Shown: positions 1,611 to 16,254 of the stretch, piece after piece | Position numbering within the stretch: position 1 is the stretch's first letter | How the letters are laid out: every line of letters starts with the position of its first letter | Source of the DNA: a virus | Lineage: Duplodnaviria > Heunggongvirae > Uroviricota > Caudoviricetes | IMG/VR virus record: IMGVR_UViG_2529292829_000006 | Length of the DNA stretch: 16,346 bases | Direction: 5' to 3' (one strand) | Translations under genes and position numbers: made by a program | The notes under the pieces: model-generated | Databases searched by the model: none | Told to the model about the DNA's origin: nothing | What the model saw: only the letters and a program-made list of their open reading frames with translations

Positions 1611-2825
1611 GTGAAACTCAATGCCCGTCAAATAGACACTGCCAAGCCAAAAGAGAAGGCTTACAAGCTGGCTGATGGTGGTGGTCTGTATCTCTTGGTA
1701 AAACCTAGTGGAGGAAAATATTGGCGCTTCAAGTATCGTGTAGCTGGTAAAGAGAAGCTGTTAGCACTAGGTGTGTATCCTGAAGTTACCTTGGCTGATG
1801 CTCGTGCAAAACGTGAAGAAGCTAAAAGGGGTATCGCTGGGGGTATCGATCCGATGGAAGCGAAACGAGAGGAAAAGATTGCCCGGGAAACGCAGTTAAA
1901 CAACACCTTCAAAGATATTGCCCTTGAGTGGCACAGCAGCAAATTAAAAAAATGGTCTGCTGGTTATGCTTCAGACATCCTCGAAGCCTTCAACAAAGAT
2001 GTGTTCCCTTACATTGGCAAAAAACCAATCGCCGAAATCAAACCACTTGAACTGCTGAATGTGCTGCGGCGCATCGAGGGGCGCGGTGCTACCGAAAAAG
2101 CCAAAAAAGTGAGGCAGCGATGTGGGGAAGTTTTCCGCTATGCAATTGTCACTGGACGTGCTGAGTATAACCCTGCACCGGATCTCACCAGCGCGATGCA
2201 AGGTCATGAATCTAATCATTATCCTTTCCTCACAGCCAAAGAATTACCTGATTTTTTCAAGGCATTGTCCAGTTACTCAGGAAGTGCATTGGTTGTTATG
2301 GCGGCTCGTTTACTGATTATCACCGGTTTGCGGACTGGCGAACTGCGCGGGGCATTATGGGATGAAATCGATCTCAACAAGGCTATCTGGGAGATACCTG
2401 CTTCACGGATGAAAATGCGTCGCCCTCATGTAGTGCCTTTGTCTGAGCAGGCTCTTTCGCTTATTGGGCAGATTAAAGAACTAACTGGCAATTATCCGCT
2501 TATGTTTCCCGGCCGTAATGATCCAAGGAAAACAATGAGCGAGGCTAGCATAAACCAAGTATTTAAACGCATCGGCTATAACGGAAAGGTTACTGGTCAT
2601 GGCTTCCGGCACACTATGAGCACCATTTTGCATGAGCAGGGCTATAACACCGCGTGGATAGAGACACAGCTTGCGCACGTCGATAAAAACTCAATTCGTG
2701 GCACATACAACCATGCGCAATATCTGGATGGGCGGCGGGAAATGCTTCAGTGGTACGCTGATTATATGGATTCGCTCGAGCATGGCGGAAATGTGGTGCA
2801 TGGTGAGTTCGGAAAATGCGGGTGA
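1611..2825 (+). CDS. int: tyrosine-type site-specific integrase, P4-type
   Basis: 404-aa ORF with GTG start and GGAGG 9 nt upstream; N-terminus MKLNARQIDTAKPKEKAYKLADGGGLYLLVKPSGGKYWRFKYR typical of P4-family integrases; catalytic-region motifs LRTGELRG, HGFRHT and C-terminal Tyr region present. Confidence 0.9.
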   Translation: MKLNARQIDTAKPKEKAYKLADGGGLYLLVKPSGGKYWRFKYRVAGKEKLLALGVYPEVTLADARAKREEAKRGIAGGIDPMEAKREEKIARETQLNNTFKDIALEWHSSKLKKWSAGYASDILEAFNKDVFPYIGKKPIAEIKPLELLNVLRRIEGRGATEKAKKVRQRCGEVFRYAIVTGRAEYNPAPDLTSAMQGHESNHYPFLTAKELPDFFKALSSYSGSALVVMAARLLIITGLRTGELRGALWDEIDLNKAIWEIPASRMKMRRPHVVPLSEQALSLIGQIKELTGNYPLMFPGRNDPRKTMSEASINQVFKRIGYNGKVTGHGFRHTMSTILHEQGYNTAWIETQLAHVDKNSIRGTYNHAQYLDGRREMLQWYADYMDSLEHGGNVVHGEFGKCG

Positions 2826-2953
2826 CTGGTTGAGTATACAGTAGTAGACTTTGAGCGACGAAAGAAAAGGCTGTGTCTAGGGTCGCTCCCGAAAATCCGT
2901 ACACCTCGACGGACTGGTACAGCCACTACAGTAGAGGACGCTGAGGTGTGCGT

Positions 2954-3751
2954 ATGATTGATATTCATGCCGAATTAAACGAATACAAAAAAGATTTTAT
3001 TTCTTTACGTGAATTTCTTGAGGTCGTGCTTAAGGTCGCTGGTGATGATTATGATGTTTCAGATGTCATAACTTGGATACTCAGGAGAATAAGCGGAGAA
3101 CATATCCGCCTGTACACAGTAAATGAATTTAAGCTGTTGGAATCTTTTTGTAACCCGTATCGGGATGAATTTGATAATGATGTTCTTTATAGAAATCTGA
3201 ATGCGGTTCGGAAACGTGGTTGTTTACCTGGTGAGAGGGATGAAAATGGTTTTCTGGTGTCCGGTTATTGGGAAGATCCCGAATTTGAGAACATTGGATT
3301 TATAAGGGGTGAAATTTTCGCAATTTTTCCCGATGTCCTTGACGCGTTAACGAAGCTGGAAGGCGCTAACTCTTCTGAAAATGACGAGGCACAAGGACGC
3401 GATATTGAAAAGAAAGAGTTGCGTACAGAGGATGATTTATTATCCCAAATCGCAATGCTGGAAAAAGAAAACGCAGAGTTAAGGGCAAGGATAGAGCAGT
3501 TAGAGCAAGAGCACCCGATACACTTATATAAATACTGGGATAAAGACCCATTAGCTAAGGCTATTGAGATTAGAAACAGAGAGTGGGCCAATTACGATCC
3601 AGAAAATGATTTTGCCACCAGGGGAAATCAAGAAGCGATAACCAGGGAGCTTAAGCAGTGGGGGGCAAGTAATGCACTTGCAACGCTCATAGAGAGGACT
3701 GCCTGCCCTATTAACCGAGACAACAGCCAAAAGAACGCAAAGCCGGATTAA
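2954..3751 (+). CDS. hypothetical protein, AT-rich cargo gene directly downstream of int, with a central coiled-coil-like segment (LSQIAMLEKENAELRARIEQLEQE)
   Basis: ORF track gives 2948 (GTG); the ATG at 2954 is the more likely start. No family recognised. Low GC relative to neighbours. Confidence 0.6.
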   Translation: MIDIHAELNEYKKDFISLREFLEVVLKVAGDDYDVSDVITWILRRISGEHIRLYTVNEFKLLESFCNPYRDEFDNDVLYRNLNAVRKRGCLPGERDENGFLVSGYWEDPEFENIGFIRGEIFAIFPDVLDALTKLEGANSSENDEAQGRDIEKKELRTEDDLLSQIAMLEKENAELRARIEQLEQEHPIHLYKYWDKDPLAKAIEIRNREWANYDPENDFATRGNQEAITRELKQWGASNALATLIERTACPINRDNSQKNAKPD

Positions 3752-3765
3752 CGCACCATACCGCA

Positions 3766-3945
3766 TACCCTGAGGGTGATTTACTGTTACCCTGAGGGTA
3801 TTTTTTTATCTTCCCCGTCAATTTTACCATCACCCTTAGGGTAGATTTCCTCCAGATTACCATCACCCTTAGGGTAGATTTCCTCCAGATTACCATCACC
3901 CTTAGGGTAGATTTCCTTCCGGTAACCATTAGGCCTGAGGGTATG
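3766..3945. repeat. array of six ACCCT-N-AGGGT palindromes, including three tandem 32-bp repeats (about 3826..3921), upstream of alpA
   Basis: Copies at about 3767, 3789, 3831, 3863, 3895 and a degenerate one at 3932; read directly from sequence. The minus-strand ORF 3711..3929 with repeated WRKSTLRVMVI is a translation artefact of this array. Confidence 0.7.
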
Positions 3946-4011
3946 AAAATATTCGTTATTTCTGTGCCATGATTACCTCGTCAAATTGAGTAGACGTTAT
4001 GAGGTAAATAT

Positions 4012-4209
4012 ATGTCAAATACGCTTATTCGTTTAACAGAAGTTCAGCGTAGAACTGGATATAGCAAGGCATGGATTTATCGCCTTATGGGGCAAGGTAA
4101 ATTTCCTGCATCAGTTAAAATTGGCTCGCGAGCTATTGCTTTCGTTGAGAGTGAAATTGACGAGTGGATTAATCAGCGTATTGCGGAATCACGCGGAACA
4201 GCTACCTGA
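4012..4209 (+). CDS. alpA: AlpA-family phage/island transcriptional regulator (HTH)
   Basis: 65-aa protein with RLTEVQRRTGYSKAWIYRLMGQGKFP ... ESEIDEWINQR, the characteristic AlpA (CP4-57 regulatory protein) pattern; GAGG ribosome-binding site upstream. Confidence 0.85.
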   Translation: MSNTLIRLTEVQRRTGYSKAWIYRLMGQGKFPASVKIGSRAIAFVESEIDEWINQRIAESRGTAT

Positions 4210-4286
4210 TTAAATGGCTACGGGGCTATTGCCCCCAGCTATCCACCAGCAAATAAAAGTAACTTAATTCGATAGCAGGAGTTTTT

Positions 4287-5087
4287 ATGAAATTTCCAAA
4301 AATGCCCGTACAGGGGCGGGGCTTCGTTCGGCCTGAAAACCAGAATCTGCAAAATCTCGGCGAAATTATCCCGATTATTTCCGGCGTTATTGGCGGGAGT
4401 GAAACCAATATTGTTAGTGCCAGAGCGTTACATAAGGCGTTAGGTGTAGGGCGCGTTTTCCGTTCGTGGATCAAGGGGCGCATTGAAGAATACGGCTTCA
4501 CGGAAGGCGTGGATTATGAGGTTGTTGAATATTTGAGCCGACCCGATCCGGTGAGCGCAAAATCTCGCCAGCAAACAGCTCTTGAGTACATCATCACCGT
4601 GAACATGGCGAAAGAACTGGCGATGGTCGAACGTACCGAACAGGGCCGCGCCGTTCGCCAGTACTTTATCAAATGCGAGGAGGAGCTACACAAGGTTGCG
4701 CCTGTTCGTTCCGCAGCGTTACGCCGGGAACTGAAAGCCCGTATCACAGTTGCCAGCTACTTTAAGCCAATGTGTGCCGCGCTGGAGGCGTACCGGGCTG
4801 AACTGGGTAAAAACACACTCCAGCACCACTACACCACGGAAGCGAACATGCTGGCGCGTATCGTGCTGGGTGGCATGACTGCAAAACAGTGGGCACTGGC
4901 GAACGGCATTACAGGCGAACCACGCGACCACATGAGCACGTTGCAGCTTGAGCACCTTTCTTACCTTGAGCAGAGCAATATCACGCTGATTGAGTTAGGC
5001 CAGGACTACCACCAGCGGAAGGCTGAATTAATTCGTCTTTCGCAGCGTTGGTTAGCCCGTCGCATGGAGGAAAACAGCCATGTGTAA
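4287..5087 (+). CDS. phage antirepressor-like protein (AntA / KilA-C-type region)
   Basis: AGGAG 7 nt upstream of ATG; segment NIVSARALHKALGVGRVFRSWIKGRIEEYGFTEGVDYEV resembles antirepressor N-terminal domains, and TALEYIITVNMAKELAMVERTEQGRAVRQYFIKCEE resembles KilA-C/ANT regions. Assigned from memory of family patterns. Confidence 0.65.
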   Translation: MKFPKMPVQGRGFVRPENQNLQNLGEIIPIISGVIGGSETNIVSARALHKALGVGRVFRSWIKGRIEEYGFTEGVDYEVVEYLSRPDPVSAKSRQQTALEYIITVNMAKELAMVERTEQGRAVRQYFIKCEEELHKVAPVRSAALRRELKARITVASYFKPMCAALEAYRAELGKNTLQHHYTTEANMLARIVLGGMTAKQWALANGITGEPRDHMSTLQLEHLSYLEQSNITLIELGQDYHQRKAELIRLSQRWLARRMEENSHV

Positions 5088-5804
5088 CGCTCTGACCGTT
5101 ACAAAAAGAGAAAGCGCCCCGTTGCCGGAGCGCCTTTGTGAACGAATAGCCTACTGCGCCATATTGCTTACTGTCTACGAGGCAGATTATAGCGTTGTGG
5201 TCGCACAGAGTGAAGGCGCTGATCACCGTTACTACAGCACGCCAGAAATGCAGAATATTTTGCTGCAAAATGTCGTTGGTCACACTGTCCGGAAAGCAAA
5301 AAATTTTGCTGGTGGCGCGACTGATGCGATTTTGTCAGGTCGCCAGGTGCTGATCAATCTGATGTCTGATTTCGTTCTGGATAAAACAAAGGCGACCGCA
5401 GAGGGCCGCCAGTGGGAAAGCTACATACTTGAACGCATCGCCAACAATGCCAGATTTGCGGCTGGTGGGCAATGTGTCAGCTTTGCACCAATGACTCTAT
5501 GTTTAACTGAGGGTCATTATGGTGAATATGCTGGCTTGCTGGTGGGCTATTCCTGCTCTTTAACATTGCCATGCCGCGATGTTTTCCAGGTATGCGACCC
5601 CATTTTTGTGCGCCTGTACTCTTTAAGGAATTTCTCAAGGATAAACGCACAGGGCGCGAATCTGTTTGACTCATGCTCGTACGCTATCTTTCTGCGCTGT
5701 CTTTTCCGTGCCGGTGATGGTGTATTGGTTGATTTTTTGTTGGTCATGGCGCAGCCCTGTAAAACGATGCACCGTAGTTCCTCACACCACGGCGCTGGTG
5801 ATGG

Positions 5805-5984
5805 TTACTCCTGTTCTTTGGCCTTGCGGCGCTGGCGGTATTCAACTTCTCGCTTTAATGCTGCTGTTACAAACTGCCCTGTACTTTCACCAGGCATTTT
5901 TACCGCCTCAACATTGTTCATAACTTCATGCGGAACCCTTGCCGCAACTGTTTGTGATTTTGCGTTTACTGCTTTTGTCGCCAT
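5805..5984 (-). CDS. small (59 aa) basic protein, candidate ribbon-helix-helix (Arc-like) transcriptional regulator, divergent from the replication operon
   Basis: Hand translation of the minus strand: MATKAVNAKSQTVAARVPHEVMNNVEAVKMPGESTGQFVTAALKREVEYRQRRKAKEQE; SD AAGGGG 8 nt upstream of ATG; below the ORF-track length cutoff; operator-like palindromes lie immediately upstream. Confidence 0.5.
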   Translation of the reverse strand: MATKAVNAKSQTVAARVPHEVMNNVEAVKMPGESTGQFVTAALKREVEYRQRRKAKEQE

Positions 5985-6029
5985 GTTGTGTACCCCTTAC
6001 AAAAAACAAATGCAGTATGCAGGAAAAAA

Positions 6030-6110
6030 AATAAGTGTTCAACACTTGACGTGTTTAACACCTGGGCTTAAATTGGTGTTCAACACCTTGTTGATGCAAG
6101 GTGCAGAAAC
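6030..6110. promoter_or_regulatory. three copies of the palindrome GTGTT-N-AACAC (6035..6045, 6051..6061, 6076..6086) in the divergent intergenic region; candidate operator/promoter
   Basis: Read directly from sequence; lies between the minus-strand small gene (start 5984) and the plus-strand small-gene chain (start 6184). Confidence 0.5.
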
Positions 6111-6183
6111 GACAACGCCCCGCAGTGGTGGCACACATGCAGGGCGTCTAACCACCAACGATAGCAAGAGTATCGAGGTAGCT

Positions 6184-6387
6184 ATGAGAAATCATACCAC
6201 ACACCCGCAAGGGCGGGACTCGCACAACCTGAATAAATACATCTGGCGTTTTATCGCCCTGAGCACGGCACAACCGCGCGTAATTCACATCGAGGCCACC
6301 AGCGAACAGGAAGCACGCCAGCAATCTCCTGATGGCTGCGTGATGGTATTCGCCGCCCGTATTCGCCAGGAGGTGGAACATGTGTAA
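6184..6387 (+). CDS. small hypothetical protein (67 aa), first gene of a translationally coupled chain
   Basis: ATG at 6184 with GAGG upstream; MRNHTTHPQGRDSHNLNKYIWRFIALSTAQPRVIHIEATSEQEARQQSPDGCVMVFAARIRQEVEHV; stop overlaps the next start (ATGTGTAA). Confidence 0.45.
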   Translation: MRNHTTHPQGRDSHNLNKYIWRFIALSTAQPRVIHIEATSEQEARQQSPDGCVMVFAARIRQEVEHV

Positions 6388-7385: not shown

Positions 7386-7676
7386 ATGAAAAAGAAAAAT
7401 TCTGGCTTTACTGCCAGCGGCCTCTCTCGGCCTGAAATCCGCCCCGGTGATATTTTCCGGGACACCAGACGCGGGGGACGGGTGGTTATTCGTCACGTTA
7501 CGCCAGGCAATATCACCTACCGCCGTGAGGCTTACGAATATGACTGCGTAATGCCGCGCCGTCAGTTTGATCGTGATTTTATTGTGGTGGAAAACAAACA
7601 ACAGGCAGTGGCGAGACGTGCAGCCACGAATATTAAAAAAATCCGGGCAATGTTGGTTGCGGGAGGTAAGAAGTGA
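7386..7676 (+). CDS. small basic hypothetical protein (96 aa)
   Basis: Stop overlaps the GTG start of the primase/helicase gene (GTGA). Confidence 0.55.
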   Translation: MKKKNSGFTASGLSRPEIRPGDIFRDTRRGGRVVIRHVTPGNITYRREAYEYDCVMPRRQFDRDFIVVENKQQAVARRAATNIKKIRAMLVAGGKK

Positions 7677-9478
7677 AAAACGCACCGAGTCTAAAATATC
7701 AGCCGAAGGATAAATTCACTGAGGTAATCATTTTTGCCGGGATGGATGCTTACGCCCATGCTCAACACTGGATTGAAAGTGAAGGACGAAAACACGGCGA
7801 TAACGTGCCTCCTGTTTACCTGGGGCCAAAGCAACTGGCAGACCTGGCGAATATCCGCATTATTGACGAGAAACGCCGTTTTGCGCGTGTCTATATCGCG
7901 GGGGAGATAGAGCCAATCCAGATCAATACTATCGCTGAAAAGCTGGCGCTGGCTGGCGTACAGGAGGCGAAATTATACAAAGGTATCACCGACCAGGAAC
8001 CGGAGAACTGGCGCGACTACCTGCAACGGATCCGCGAACAGGCTGAGCACGGGGAAGTTTCAGTGATGAAATTAGCTACAAAAAATAGTGGTCTACCCAA
8101 GCCTGCATTAAATCAGATGGGAGCCAGCCAGAGAGGGGAAGTGTTACTTGAACATTATGGAGGAGCACTGGCGATAAATGATGATTCTGATGTAGTTCAC
8201 CATTACAACGGAATTGTTTGGGAGCCTGTATCTGATAAGGAACTCCAGCGGTCTATGGCGAAGATTTTTATTGATGCCGAAATTAGTTATTCGCAAAACG
8301 CCATTAAATTTGCCGTAGAGACAATGAAATTGAGTCTACCTGTTATGGGGGGAGCGGACAGAAATCTTATTGGGTTCAGTAACGGTGTTTTTGATATCAG
8401 GACAGGAAATTTTCGGGAACACAACAAAAATGACTGGTTGTTAAATGCCAGTGAATTACCGTTCAGCCCGCCAGAAGAGGGGGAAACGCTGGCAACACAT
8501 GCGCCGAATTTCTGGAAGTGGTTGCGTCGTTCGGTGGCGGATAATGCTCGTAAAGCGGATCGCGTACTGGCGGCATTATTCATGGTACTGGCGAACCGGT
8601 ACGACTGGCAGTTATTCCTTGAGGTAACGGGGCCGGGCGGAAGCGGTAAAAGTGTGATGGCGGAGATTTGTACCATGCTGGCGGGTAAGGCCAATACAGT
8701 ATCGGCGAGCATGAAGGCGCTGGAAGACGCGAGGGAACGAGCGTTAGTGGTGGGATATTCTCTGATTATCATGCCTGACATGACCCGCTACGCAGGTGAT
8801 GGTGCTGGGATTAAGGCCATTACAGGCGGTGACAAGGTGGCTATCGATCCGAAACACAAAGCGCCCTATTCCACGCGCGTTCCTGCGGTAGTGCTGGCAG
8901 TAAACAATTATGCCATGTCATTCAGCGACCGTAGTGGGGGGATCTCGCGTCGACGAGTAATATTTAATTTCTCTGAGGTTGTACCAGAGAACGAACGCGA
9001 TCCGATGCTGGCGAAAAAGATAGAAGGGGAACTGGCAGTAGTGATTCGCCATTTGCTTACACGATTTGCCGACCAGGACGAAGCGAAAAGACTACTTTAT
9101 GAGCAGCAAAAATCAGAAGAAGCACTGTTGATAAAGCGTGAAGGTGATTCGCTGGTGGACTTCTGCGGTTATCTGATGTCGTTGGTTAAATGTGAGGGAA
9201 TGATAGTAGGTAATGCAGAAATAGTGCCATTTAGTCCGAGGCGATATCTGTATCATGCTTATTTGGCTTATATGTCTGCGCATGGTCTGGGAAAACCGGT
9301 ATCACTGACACGCTTTGGTACAGATATGCCAGGGGCAATGGCTGAGTACGGAAAGGAGTACAAGCGGGCTAAATGCACTAAAGGTCCAGATAAAGGGCGA
9401 ACGATCACAAATGTTCTGTTAGATAAAGATGCTGATGGATGGTTACCAGCAACGGCAGGCATTAACGACAGAACATGA
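7673..9478 (+). CDS. phage/plasmid primase-helicase, P4-alpha-family C-terminal domain (island replication initiator)
   Basis: 601 aa; motif LIGFSNGVFDIRTGNFREHNKNDWLLNASELPF (D5-N / P4-family primase C-terminal signature) and P-loop LEVTGPGGSGKS; iteron array immediately downstream. Confidence 0.85.
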   Translation: MKNAPSLKYQPKDKFTEVIIFAGMDAYAHAQHWIESEGRKHGDNVPPVYLGPKQLADLANIRIIDEKRRFARVYIAGEIEPIQINTIAEKLALAGVQEAKLYKGITDQEPENWRDYLQRIREQAEHGEVSVMKLATKNSGLPKPALNQMGASQRGEVLLEHYGGALAINDDSDVVHHYNGIVWEPVSDKELQRSMAKIFIDAEISYSQNAIKFAVETMKLSLPVMGGADRNLIGFSNGVFDIRTGNFREHNKNDWLLNASELPFSPPEEGETLATHAPNFWKWLRRSVADNARKADRVLAALFMVLANRYDWQLFLEVTGPGGSGKSVMAEICTMLAGKANTVSASMKALEDARERALVVGYSLIIMPDMTRYAGDGAGIKAITGGDKVAIDPKHKAPYSTRVPAVVLAVNNYAMSFSDRSGGISRRRVIFNFSEVVPENERDPMLAKKIEGELAVVIRHLLTRFADQDEAKRLLYEQQKSEEALLIKREGDSLVDFCGYLMSLVKCEGMIVGNAEIVPFSPRRYLYHAYLAYMSAHGLGKPVSLTRFGTDMPGAMAEYGKEYKRAKCTKGPDKGRTITNVLLDKDADGWLPATAGINDRT

Positions 9479-9847: not shown

Positions 9848-10390
9848 ATGGGGCAAAGCATGACTAAGCTGACCATTAACAGAAAACCGAAAGGCATTTA
9901 CGGCACGCCGCAGAAAACGACGCAGGCGGCGCAGGAGCAGGATAAAACCACATCGGCGCATAAAGTGATGCCCGGTAACCAGAAAGCGCAGCAAAAGCCC
10001 ACAGGGGCGACACCGTGGCGGCATATGACCAAACGCCAGCGCAAAAACCGCAGGCGCGTTAACCGCCTCACTGAGTTGTGGCCTGACTTATTCAGCCGGG
10101 AAGCACCGAAGCCGCTTAAGGTGGGGATATTCGACGACCTGATGCAGGATCTCGCCGTCAGGGGGCTGGCATTCGGGCCAGGGGCATTGCGTGCGACGCT
10201 GGCATCTTATGCGCAGTGTCCGCACTATTACCGCGCCTTAATGGCTGGTGGGGTACGCTACGACCTGAAAGGCCAGCCGTGCGGCGAGGTGACACCACAG
10301 GAACAACAGGACGCAGAAACGCGGCTGGTGGCGCTGAATGAGAAGCGCAAACGCCAGCGCCGGGCAGCAAAGGAGACAATAGGCGCATGA
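9848..10390 (+). CDS. ProQ/FinO-family RNA-binding protein
   Basis: Segment RRVNRLTELWPDLFSREAPKPLKVGIFDDLMQDL matches the conserved FinO/ProQ domain pattern; an alternative start at the ATG 9860 is possible. Confidence 0.7.
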   Translation: MGQSMTKLTINRKPKGIYGTPQKTTQAAQEQDKTTSAHKVMPGNQKAQQKPTGATPWRHMTKRQRKNRRRVNRLTELWPDLFSREAPKPLKVGIFDDLMQDLAVRGLAFGPGALRATLASYAQCPHYYRALMAGGVRYDLKGQPCGEVTPQEQQDAETRLVALNEKRKRQRRAAKETIGA

Positions 10391-14285: not shown

Positions 14286-15281
14286 ATGGATACGAGAGTG
14301 GCGACGATAATCAAAAATATAGCAATCAAAGGTCTTTTTAAACGGAAGGACATTGATTGGAGTTTAAAAGATGTGAATGTTTTAGTGGGTAAAAATGGCT
14401 CAGGTAAGAGCACGATAATTCAAAGTGTTTTTGCCCTCTTAAAACAAGAATTAAATGAAAGTTTAAGTAATGCTGCGTTGGCTCAAATAACATTGGCCAA
14501 TGGAGGCACAATTACTCACAAAGTTAATTTTCGCGAAATTGACTCTGTCCAGCTTCTAAACCTACTTAATAACCTTAAGAAAAACAGTATTAAAGGTAAA
14601 TCAAAGGGTAAGGAAATAAAGGAGTTAAATGAACTTATTGAGTTGCTTGAATCGAAAAAAGAAGACACTGAAATTAAAGAGTTCGGGATGGGAACTGTTA
14701 GCGTAAGTGATAATATTAAAAACACTAAGCGAATAAATGTTGAGTTAATATCAACTATCAATATGAGTGCCAATTCCATCTATGAATTCAAAAAAAGTGA
14801 TGGTGAGCGCACCACAATTCTTGATATGGAAATTGCTGGTGAATTAGAAAGGTTAAAGAATACTTTCAAAGTAAGTGAGTCTAAAGGTATTCTCATAAAG
14901 GATAAGTTGGAATCAGCTATAAATAATTTATTTGCTGAATGTAACAAAGTTGTTTCTTTTAGTAATGGTAACATTTCTATTAAGATGAGTGATTCTGGTG
15001 AAGATATTAGGTATAATCTTCTTTCATCAGGTGAACGTCAGTTGTTATATATTCTGATTAAAACAGCTAATACTTCATTGGATGAATCTGTCTTGTTGAT
15101 GGATGAGCCAGAAATATCCTTGCACCTTACGTGGCAAGAAAGATTAATAAGCACCATCAAATCAATTAACGATAATTGTCAGTTAATTATTGTTACTCAT
15201 AGTCCTGCAATATTAATGAAAGGCTGGATGGATTCTTTCGTAGATATAAAAAATATTTCAAAGGAATCTTCTCATGACTGA
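14286..15281 (+). CDS. ABC-type ATPase (AAA_15/AAA_21-like, OLD/AriA-like), first gene of a candidate anti-phage pair
   Basis: Walker A VGKNGSGKST, ABC signature LSSGERQ, Walker B VLLMDEPE, H-loop IIVTHSP; AT-rich; possible TATAAT at about 14261; an alternative GTG start at 14298 is possible. Confidence 0.85.
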   Translation: MDTRVATIIKNIAIKGLFKRKDIDWSLKDVNVLVGKNGSGKSTIIQSVFALLKQELNESLSNAALAQITLANGGTITHKVNFREIDSVQLLNLLNNLKKNSIKGKSKGKEIKELNELIELLESKKEDTEIKEFGMGTVSVSDNIKNTKRINVELISTINMSANSIYEFKKSDGERTTILDMEIAGELERLKNTFKVSESKGILIKDKLESAINNLFAECNKVVSFSNGNISIKMSDSGEDIRYNLLSSGERQLLYILIKTANTSLDESVLLMDEPEISLHLTWQERLISTIKSINDNCQLIIVTHSPAILMKGWMDSFVDIKNISKESSHD

Positions 15282-16254
15282 GTTTGAGGATATTAATTTT
15301 AGCGAAGAATATCTTCAGGTATATTGTATTATGGCTGGACACAATGGCTTTGTCTTTGTTGAAGGTCTAAAAGACATTTCTTTCTGGGAAGGCTTATTAA
15401 ACGATAAAGATAATGATATACGTTTTGATATTTGTAACCCTACCAATAAAGGAACAAAAGGGAAACCAGTATTAAAAAAATTCATGAGCCGAGCAAATCG
15501 ATATGCCATATTTGCAATGGATAGTGATTTTGATTATTTATGCCCTAAAAACAGTACAGACTCAGAGATAATTTGCAGTAACAAGTTTATTTTTCAAACA
15601 TTTGTATATTCAAAAGAGAGCATCGAGTTACACCATGAAGTCCTTGAGTATTGTCTTTCTCAAATAAAGATCGCTACTGAAATTAAATTCGATTTTACAG
15701 CATACATTACAGAGTATTCACGGTTGATCTACCCCGTGCTGAAGAAATTTTTATTGCTTAAACAGCATCAAGTTAGACTTGATGACTCAGTTTTCCATGA
15801 AGCGATTGCTCCTTCTGTGCCACGATTAACGAACCAATTTGTTATCAAAAATGCTGTATTTGAAAGTATGCAGCAATCTAAAGCGGTTATTGAAGAAAAA
15901 CTTGATAACCTTATTCAAGATGAATACGATGCTGATAAATTCTATGAGCAGTTATATGATAAAGGATTGAGAGAAGATAACGCCTATCAATATATCAATG
16001 GTCATTTTTTAGCTGATAGAGTTGTCATGCCTGTCATAAAATCATTGATAGAGCAATTGAATATTAATGAAACTGCCTTAATAGTCAAACAATGCAAAGA
16101 TAAACCAACCTTAATCTCGGAAAGAAAGAGTGAGCTAAAAAATATTCTTGAAACTGATTTGAATATTAATACGCTATTACACTGTTGCAAAGAAAAGTTC
16201 AAAACTCCTTGTGCTATTGCGATCAAAGAAAATGTAGCTCGAGCTTTAGCATGA
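15274..16254 (+). CDS. TOPRIM-like (DUF4435-type) putative nuclease, OLD/AriB-like effector candidate
   Basis: 8-nt overlap with the ATPase gene (ATGACTGA); N-terminal FVFVEGLKD (conserved Glu) and AIFAMDSDFDY (DxD) in TOPRIM-like spacing; AT-rich. Confidence 0.75.
   Translation: MTEFEDINFSEEYLQVYCIMAGHNGFVFVEGLKDISFWEGLLNDKDNDIRFDICNPTNKGTKGKPVLKKFMSRANRYAIFAMDSDFDYLCPKNSTDSEIICSNKFIFQTFVYSKESIELHHEVLEYCLSQIKIATEIKFDFTAYITEYSRLIYPVLKKFLLLKQHQVRLDDSVFHEAIAPSVPRLTNQFVIKNAVFESMQQSKAVIEEKLDNLIQDEYDADKFYEQLYDKGLREDNAYQYINGHFLADRVVMPVIKSLIEQLNINETALIVKQCKDKPTLISERKSELKNILETDLNINTLLHCCKEKFKTPCAIAIKENVARALA

Follow-up and report, generated by a model that had tools for sequence, protein, structure and literature searches.

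A candidate regulator of alpA and its operator-like palindromes in a phage satellite island of Escherichia coli

In Gram-negative phage-inducible chromosomal islands (PICIs), AlpA is the master activator and its gene is the switch induced by the helper phage (PMC6092414, PMC11773190). Published accounts place int and alpA alone in the integration zone and state that a global repressor is not known (PMC6092414, PMC10111431, PMC11773190). How such islands are kept silent and how the helper switches alpA is an acknowledged open question. It is posed in concrete form by a 16,346-nucleotide stretch of viral DNA (IMG/VR record IMGVR_UViG_2529292829_000006, hereafter the window), in which the gene for a 265-residue protein, ORF265, and a series of palindromes lie between int and alpA. 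Literature searches returned no description of the ORF265 family or of the palindromes. From a comparative analysis we tentatively favour a reading in which ORF265 would be a zipper dimer that occupies the palindromes through its C-terminal domain and gates the alpA promoter, repression being the preferred sign. The locus thereby offers a testable candidate, whose assets are an unannotated protein family, an operator consensus with conserved positions and natural cassette swaps that can serve as specificity controls.

A modular protein encoded between int and alpA

The open reading frame (ORF) delimited mechanically begins with a GTG at 2948. Met1 is kept in all ORF265 homologues, which places the start at ATG 2954; the frame ends with TAA at 3749-3751 (265 amino acids, plus strand) and is preceded by a Shine-Dalgarno sequence, GAGG, at 2943-2946. 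A preliminary description of this DNA had called the gene low in GC. It does fall below the island mean (41.4% versus 44.4%) and is therefore merely mildly AT-rich; the corresponding values are 47.8% for int, 53.1% for antA and 32.6% for the block carrying the PARIS defence genes. That the product lacks a recognisable domain was borne out by hidden Markov model (HMM) and structure-based searches. Pfam, NCBIfam, PHROGs and PADLOC gave no domain, with coiled-coil noise alone over residues 158-186, and weak matches to DivIC and bZIP-type coiled coils were the sole profile matches of the zipper. A PDB profile search returned coiled coils only, the zipper plus C-domain had no PDB relative by sequence or by fold, and the whole protein gave no convincing fold match. 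The N-domain had no HMM match to Phage_AlpA or HTH_17, the AlpA/excisionase-type winged helix. A Pfam scan of 100 members of the family (the X family, X being the gene between int and alpA) yielded nothing consistent, with a single EAD9 match. One match to a LacI-type periplasmic-binding domain came from a truncated chimeric ORF (P0067) and was set aside as uninformative about fusions.

AlphaFold prediction and family alignments divide ORF265 as follows.

2954-3370, plus strand: N-domain (residues 1-139), acidic (net -12), AlphaFold predicted local distance difference test (pLDDT) about 85-93, variable and swappable
3371-3427, plus strand: disordered acidic linker (residues 140-158), pLDDT below 50 over residues 140-157
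3428-3511, plus strand: leucine zipper (residues 159-186), Leu162/169/176/183, Asn173 at an 'a' position
3512-3721, plus strand: conserved C-domain (residues 187-256), 70 amino acids in four short helices, proposed DNA-specificity module

The coiled-coil-like central segment of the preliminary description was thus recovered as four heptads with Leu at every seventh position, modelled by AlphaFold as one long helix from residue 159 to 186. Judged by this spacing, Leu162, 169, 176 and 183 together with Asn173 form a textbook dimeric zipper. Zipper and C-domain are predicted with a pLDDT of 91.7, and the C-domain shows invariant alignment columns summarised by the motif P-I-L-L..DDPL.LAIEIRN.EW.NYDP...T....AI..EL...G.S..QA.AIE.VACPI.R. 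The N-domain, which is strongly acidic, shows a strand-helix-helix-strand-strand run at residues 15-64 in the AlphaFold model.

The two ends of the protein recombine independently. In X-family alignments the N-domain is replaced or diverged while the C-module stays, so that many proteins have the zipper and C-domain in common and nothing else; conversely, about a dozen clusters share the N-domain only, fused to an unrelated C-module (for example protein P0092 and locus L031). At L031 (2501-3274 and 3275-3476) the ORF265-type N-domain is followed, in the same int-X-alpA slot, by a C-module with the motif GKDTALM.IAGLA.AL...RG...N.SA. Alternative C-modules, both those of P0092-type proteins and that of the L005 slot protein, had no Pfam match and no kinship to the X C-domain. 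In Kluyvera, Symbiopectobacterium and Pantoea (L012 3651-4447, L014, L015) the X gene consists of two ORFs, one for the N-domain and one for zipper plus C-domain, and in Xenorhabdus (L016 2140-3560) it is broken by an insertion sequence transposase.

One copy of the gene, 99% identical to ORF265, is labelled "bZIP transcription factor" in RefSeq. ORF265 resembles bZIP and bHLH-Zip factors in its Leu heptads, in the Asn at position 'a' and in the short, abutting half-sites with a single central base found next to it. The bZIP label fails because there is no basic region N-terminal to the zipper: residues 140-158 are acidic (net -2). Moreover, the zipper precedes the candidate DNA module, and the Pfam models bZIP_1 and bZIP_2 gave no match in ORF265.

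A palindrome array that follows the C-terminal module

The DNA between ORF265 and alpA, and the larger segment to which it belongs, contain the following elements.

2874-3990, plus strand: exchangeable regulatory cassette, comprising RNA leader, ORF265, terminator/palindrome array and alpA promoter
3765-3808, plus strand: palindromes 1 and 2 (3767-3777 and 3789-3799), mutually paired and followed by U7; predicted intrinsic terminator of the int-ORF265 transcript
3824-3929, plus strand: three 33-bp tandem units, each with one CACCCTTAGGGTA site (3832-3842, 3865-3875, 3898-3908)
3925-3942, plus strand: promoter-proximal composite site ACCATTAGG/CCTGAGGGT, adjoining the -35 position of the presumed alpA promoter
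3965-3973, plus strand: putative extended -10 (TGcCATGAT) of the alpA promoter, with no good -35 element
3974-4007, plus strand: alpA leader hairpin, predicted by folding to sequester the alpA Shine-Dalgarno GAGG (4001-4004)
4012-4209, plus strand: alpA (Phage_AlpA/HTH_17, Pfam 2.4e-19), presumed regulated target

Five exact ACCCTNAGGGT palindromes, at 3767, 3789, 3832, 3865 and 3898, and the composite site all sit in the 260-bp spacer between the ORF265 stop and the alpA ATG (4012). Distances between successive centres (22, 43, 33, 33 and 34 bp) are multiples of about 11. Chance predicts 0.21 exact palindromes in the window, no shuffle gave five, and no ACCCTNAGGGT site was found elsewhere in its 16 kb. 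Hence both the dense operator-like array upstream of alpA and the placement of ORF265 between int (1611-2825) and this array, as first reported, were confirmed. The fold of the predicted terminator at 3765-3808 has an energy of -24.8 kcal/mol (z = -5.5), a value equalled by none of 200 shuffles.

Is this array an operator? Tandem 33-bp units, helical phasing, AT-rich flanks and a variable copy number are also what would be expected of iterons, that is, of a replication or packaging site bound by ORF265. Copy number does vary from one to three between strains, the window having three units while other strains with a 99-100% identical ORF265 have one or two (L002, the L033 group and genome matches that are 33 bp shorter). 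We regard an iteron function as highly improbable. The island has its own P4-alpha-like primase-helicase, and an origin is expected downstream of that gene (PMC10111431); across genera, the sites keep their distances from the alpA start and from the -10-like block; and most relatives have no tandem duplication at all.

Natural exchanges of the segment argue for an operator read by the C-module. In blastn comparison, the island of avian pathogenic E. coli IMT5155 (L003) matches the window at 98% identity as far as position 2873 and at 97% from 3991 onward, with Int 99%, AlpA 97% and AntA 97% identical. In place of 2874-3990 it carries a 238-codon gene and a spacer with TGGTGGTT/AACCACCA and AATGG-type repeats, and no ACCCTNAGGGT; between the C-terminus of the 238-residue protein and the X C-domain there is no more than a distant relationship (hhalign 81%, E 1e-5). 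At locus L007, which keeps the palindromes, AlpA is 100% identical, the C-module is 58% identical to that of ORF265, and tblastn does not recognise the N-domain. Conversely, L031, which has a homologous N-domain joined to the alternative C-module, has CACTTCCAA repeats in its spacer instead of palindromes. L003, L004, L005 and EcCIMP1, a validated PICI, have neither an X C-module of the ORF265 type nor palindromes. Since the palindromes follow the C-module across L007, L031 and L003, the proteins AlpA, Int and AntA as well as the N-domain are excluded as the specific binder. Two further assignments were rejected on the same material: integrase arm sites, as L003 has a 99% identical Int without palindromes and the array lies more than 2 kb from the attachment (att) core; and AlpA sites, as islands with palindromes and islands lacking them share AlpA at 97-100% identity.

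The association extends through the family. X-family spacers carry two to six copies of TACCCTNAGGGTA or of variants such as ACCCTCATAGT and ACCATGATAGT; a further variant, TACTATNATAGTA, is that of Pasteurellaceae and of a metagenomic relative. Scored with the pattern ACYMTNAKRGT, palindromes numbered 14.4 per kb in X-alpA spacers and 0.2 per kb outside the spacers of these loci; an independent IMG/VR set gave 14.6 versus 0.20 per kb. In six genera the site centres stay at -206, -174, -152 and -108 relative to the alpA ATG despite diverged spacer DNA. Half-site variants track the C-domain subtype: ACCCT accompanies TRGNQ, ACTAT accompanies APKA/KPTQ, and IPxQ is found with a mixture of sites. 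The simplest reading of these comparisons is that zipper and C-module are the DNA-specificity determinant.

It could be argued instead that something else, a helper-phage or host factor for instance, binds the palindromes and that ORF265 acts on proteins, its N-domain modulating, say, AlpA, Int or a protein of the helper. ORF265 is acidic and has no recognisable DNA-binding fold, the co-occurrence of C-module and spacer repeats could in part reflect adjacency, and no helper-encoded inducer of alpA is known in the literature (PMC6092414). We consider this unlikely: within the island, the window (with palindromes) and L003 (without) differ only in ORF265, the association spans E. coli to Pasteurellaceae though the flanking DNA is unalignable, and the half-site variants go with the C-domain subtypes.

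The sign of the presumed control depends on the alpA promoter. The composite site is kept in position and sequence in nine aligned loci from seven genera, and a TG-n-(C/A)AT-n-AT block at 3965-3973 is conserved in the spacer alignment; a consensus sigma-70 scan of 2700-4300 showed no canonical promoter. ORF265 might be an activator that responds to the helper: bound to the array, it would bring RNA polymerase to an alpA promoter that has no -35 element, and its N-domain would turn it on once a helper-phage product is present. The absence of a canonical promoter fits such a role, as does the location of all sites upstream of the putative extended -10, the conserved proximal one being centred about -43 to -47 from the presumed start, a class II activator position. 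Furthermore, the alpA promoters of related PICIs without an X gene are silent until the helper acts (PMC6092414, PMC11773190). On the other hand, those same X-less PICIs achieve helper activation without such a factor, and five or six phased sites over 170 bp, the series beginning at the terminator of ORF265 itself, have rather the look of an array for silencing or occupancy; the start site being deduced, the positions are approximate. Activation is a possibility that we rate as rather improbable.

Several observations weigh against the favoured reading itself. No site overlaps the putative -10 or the start, and the position of the proximal site, about -43 to -47, is no less apt for a class II activator than for a repressor. 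Promoter and transcription start are themselves deduced from the sequence. ORF265 and alpA point the same way, whereas the stl arrangement is divergent. The protein is acidic (isoelectric point 4.7), its C-domain is merely neutral (net -1 to +3 in relatives), and sequence and fold searches link it to no DNA-binding domain. Finally, the C-module physically adjoins the spacer, so that part of the co-occurrence could be linkage.

The conserved hairpin of the alpA leader was predicted singly for the window, L003, L031 and L013, and in L003 an altered Shine-Dalgarno sequence is matched by an altered anti-Shine-Dalgarno. RNAalifold found no consensus structure among alpA leaders because the rows are divergent; single-sequence folds were used instead. 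The presumed start, near 3980, falls inside the left arm of the hairpin; therefore transcripts from the alpA promoter might escape the block while read-through transcripts would be silent.

The int-alpA RNA leader and a model for control of alpA

The segment upstream of ORF265 contains a structured RNA element.

2870-2937, plus strand: Rfam RF02996, int-alpA RNA motif; ORF265 5' leader, 45.5 bits against a gathering threshold of 35.8 (cmscan)

The motif ends 16 nt upstream of ORF265, and its 5' end coincides with the cassette breakpoint. It was found 14-21 nt upstream of the X-family start codon at 15 other loci and at 16 of 20 IMG/VR loci; for the Pasteurellaceae loci L021, L022 and L028 the start was taken by eye at an MKxSLPKK-type Met. 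The loci bearing it include Pasteurellaceae and L031, the locus with the alternative C-module. Rfam scans did not detect it in L003 (even at E up to 1), L004, L005, EcCIMP1 or CP4-57. The window element belongs to RF02996 by score and by covarying helices P1 and P3: among the three helices, 4 of 8 pairs in P1 and 4 of 5 in P3 change on both sides, and 95% of alignment cells are paired compared with 28-46% for slid controls. Its P3 loop, ACACCUC (2901-2907), is complementary to the Shine-Dalgarno region of ORF265, GAGGUGU (2943-2949). In each of the 12 enterobacterial sequences this loop helix is paired, and a single compensatory change is seen; Salmonella has the compensatory pair ACACCCC/GGGGUG, and in Pasteurellaceae ACCUU stands opposite AAGG. 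In Rfam the family is filed as a small RNA whose role is unknown, and its name refers to where it lies, between int and alpA. Since the motif occurs only with X-family genes, lies close to their start and has a loop complementary to the Shine-Dalgarno sequence, it is better seen as a cis leader than as a free small RNA, and these features suggest that it is a cis-acting translational leader of ORF265. In that case an Rfam motif of unknown function gains a genomic role. The island also encodes a ProQ/FinO-family RNA-binding protein (9848-10390), a possible partner of its structured leaders.

We propose that ORF265 is a backbone regulatory gene of the satellite island and that its product would dimerise in parallel through the four-heptad zipper. 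The C-terminal module would bind the TACCCTNAGGGTA palindromes, phased at multiples of about 11 bp, from the gene's own stop codon to the alpA -35 region. Binding would gate expression of AlpA, the master activator of the island, and would most plausibly repress, leaving alpA silent in the resting island. A zipper located immediately N-terminal to the C-module would set two modules on the abutting half-sites of an 11-13 bp palindrome. The swappable acidic N-domain may be an input module that ties release to a helper-phage signal, a Stl-like logic embodied in a new protein family. Synthesis of ORF265 would itself be controlled by the int-alpA RNA leader, whose P3 loop could mask the ribosome-binding site, and the int-ORF265 transcript would end at the terminator made of palindromes 1 and 2. 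The preliminary description had suggested that the gene might be the island's repressor; cassette exchange and the co-occurrence of C-module and palindromes speak for a regulator of either sign.

The arrangement recalls Stl of the Staphylococcus aureus pathogenicity islands (SaPIs) and Rpr of Gram-positive PICIs, regulators beside int that control the satellite lytic switch. They likewise combine a conserved DNA-specificity part with a divergent part possibly reading helper proteins, and their alleles vary between similar islands. Stl and Rpr are helix-turn-helix proteins to which ORF265 has no similarity in sequence or fold. ORF265 also differs in being co-oriented with its target rather than divergent although it lies next to int, in having its proposed DNA module C-terminal, after a zipper, and in its presumed target, the promoter of the activator AlpA. 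Lambdoid immunity cassettes offer a second parallel, in that the regulator and its cognate repeats are swapped jointly between islands 97-99% identical on both sides; the protein family is a different one and the ORF265 cassette adds a structured RNA leader. The logic of both systems is thus resembled, and membership of either fails on homology and orientation. Whether ORF265 founds the missing 'Stl equivalent' of Gram-negative satellites is a bolder proposal, which would comprise a new fold family with a zipper-dimerised C-terminal DNA module shutting the alpA promoter, helper-specific N-modules and an int-alpA RNA setting the repressor level; in this full form we consider it doubtful. Should the N-domain indeed sense helper proteins, its variants would chart which satellites go with which helpers, and the module could be used for helper-responsive switches.

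Distribution of the slot and the surrounding island

ORF265 was found in 148 of 5,426 complete E. coli genomes, always on the chromosome and mostly annotated as hypothetical. A word-indexed search returned 42 relatives, and an exhaustive profile search of 1.84 billion representatives only 128 clusters. The int-X-alpA slot is filled by homologues across Enterobacterales and Pasteurellaceae, in 12 genera or more (Escherichia, Salmonella, Kluyvera, Raoultella, Symbiopectobacterium, Pantoea, Xenorhabdus, Cedecea, Photorhabdus, Atlantibacter and Sodalis, plus several Pasteurellaceae). All homologues with readable context lie downstream of int with an alpA-like gene 70-330 bp further downstream; in the independent IMG/VR set such a gene lies 70-250 bp downstream of all 29 distinct C-domains. 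Among the 238 E. coli genomes with the alpA-antA backbone, the slot holds ORF265 in 148, a second gene in 26 and a third in 2. On this record the slot is 'allelic', occupied by differing regulators each with its own repeats and invariably coupled to the alpA promoter, and is not a cargo site.

This bears on the other proposal of the preliminary description, in which a lone gene beside int would be variable cargo and encode an anti-phage defence or exclusion protein. The mildly low GC and the highly variable N-domain agree with it, and Rousset et al. reportedly described int-proximal hotspots in true P4 elements in 2022. Here, too, the gene adjoins a satellite integrase. The window slot differs from such a P4-like hotspot in holding allelic regulators, with PARIS at the distal end of the island and no psu, sid or delta. 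The homologues are syntenic, backbone-like, in all related loci examined, with int followed by X and then, after some 200 bp, by alpA, the very outcome named in that description as contradicting cargo; the cargo or defence reading is therefore unsupported. In addition, no PADLOC defence family matched ORF265, whereas AriA and AriB of the same window matched strongly; tblastn against phage and plasmid collections gave no match; and the gene is tied to a dedicated RNA leader and an operator array. We judge a defence role very improbable, though a shade less so than iterons.

The window is E. coli chromosome, with proA at 1-1254 and tRNA-Thr(CGU) at 1369-1444, after which the island begins. Besides the elements given above, it contains the following.

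1611-2825, plus strand: int, downstream of tRNA-Thr
4287-5087: AntA/Ant-like gene (antA), followed by small phage-family genes
7673-9478: P4-alpha/D5-type primase-helicase
9848-10390: ProQ/FinO-family gene; the island also has a PerC-like gene
14286-16254: AriA/AriB (PARIS), a block of 32% GC at the distal island end; defence cargo region

The att core TCCTATTATC, reported for EcCIMP1 at thrW, occurs at 1428-1437. Co-oriented int, alpA and primase genes beside a tRNA att site, with no virion structural genes, are the hallmarks of a Gram-negative PICI, and adjacent int and alpA form the "integration zone" layout of these elements (PMC10111431). No sid, psu or delta gene was found in the island. 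By gene content and order, then, the island is a Gram-negative PICI-type phage satellite at thrW with the int-plus-alpA layout, and the earlier P4-like label does not hold for it as P4 proper.

EcCIMP1 and EcCICFT073, both Gram-negative PICIs, are islands of the same type. EcCIMP1 shares the thrW att core, int, alpA, an Ant-like gene, primase and PerC, and differs in its 427-bp int-alpA gap, which has no X-family gene, palindromes or int-alpA motif. EcCIMP1_002, a small ORF in the same slot that was tested for UvrB-like function (PMC11773190), showed no kinship to ORF265. YfjH, in the same slot of K-12 CP4-57, has its gene on the other strand and is not homologous either; there (L032 3145-4101) yfjH diverges from alpA across a 43-bp gap, a Stl-like arrangement, and no int-alpA motif is present.

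Some features of the wider family and of the window were noted in passing. No C4 or isrK immunity RNA was detected in the window's island at the Rfam gathering threshold; P4-type C4 and isrK RNAs occur downstream of the Ant-like gene in L006, L012-L014, L019, L021, L022, L030 and several IMG/VR loci. At 5080-6387 the window has a plus-strand ORF of 435 amino acids with no Pfam match and no RefSeq annotation; in its place RefSeq has, on the minus strand, small genes of the YlcI/YnfO family, as well as an Icd-like gene. Lastly, the genome of Pasteurellaceae bacterium Macca (L022-L026, L029) has at least six copies of X-containing elements, in which a terminase-like gene precedes X and two tandem AlpA-like genes and a Rha/Ant-like gene follow it.

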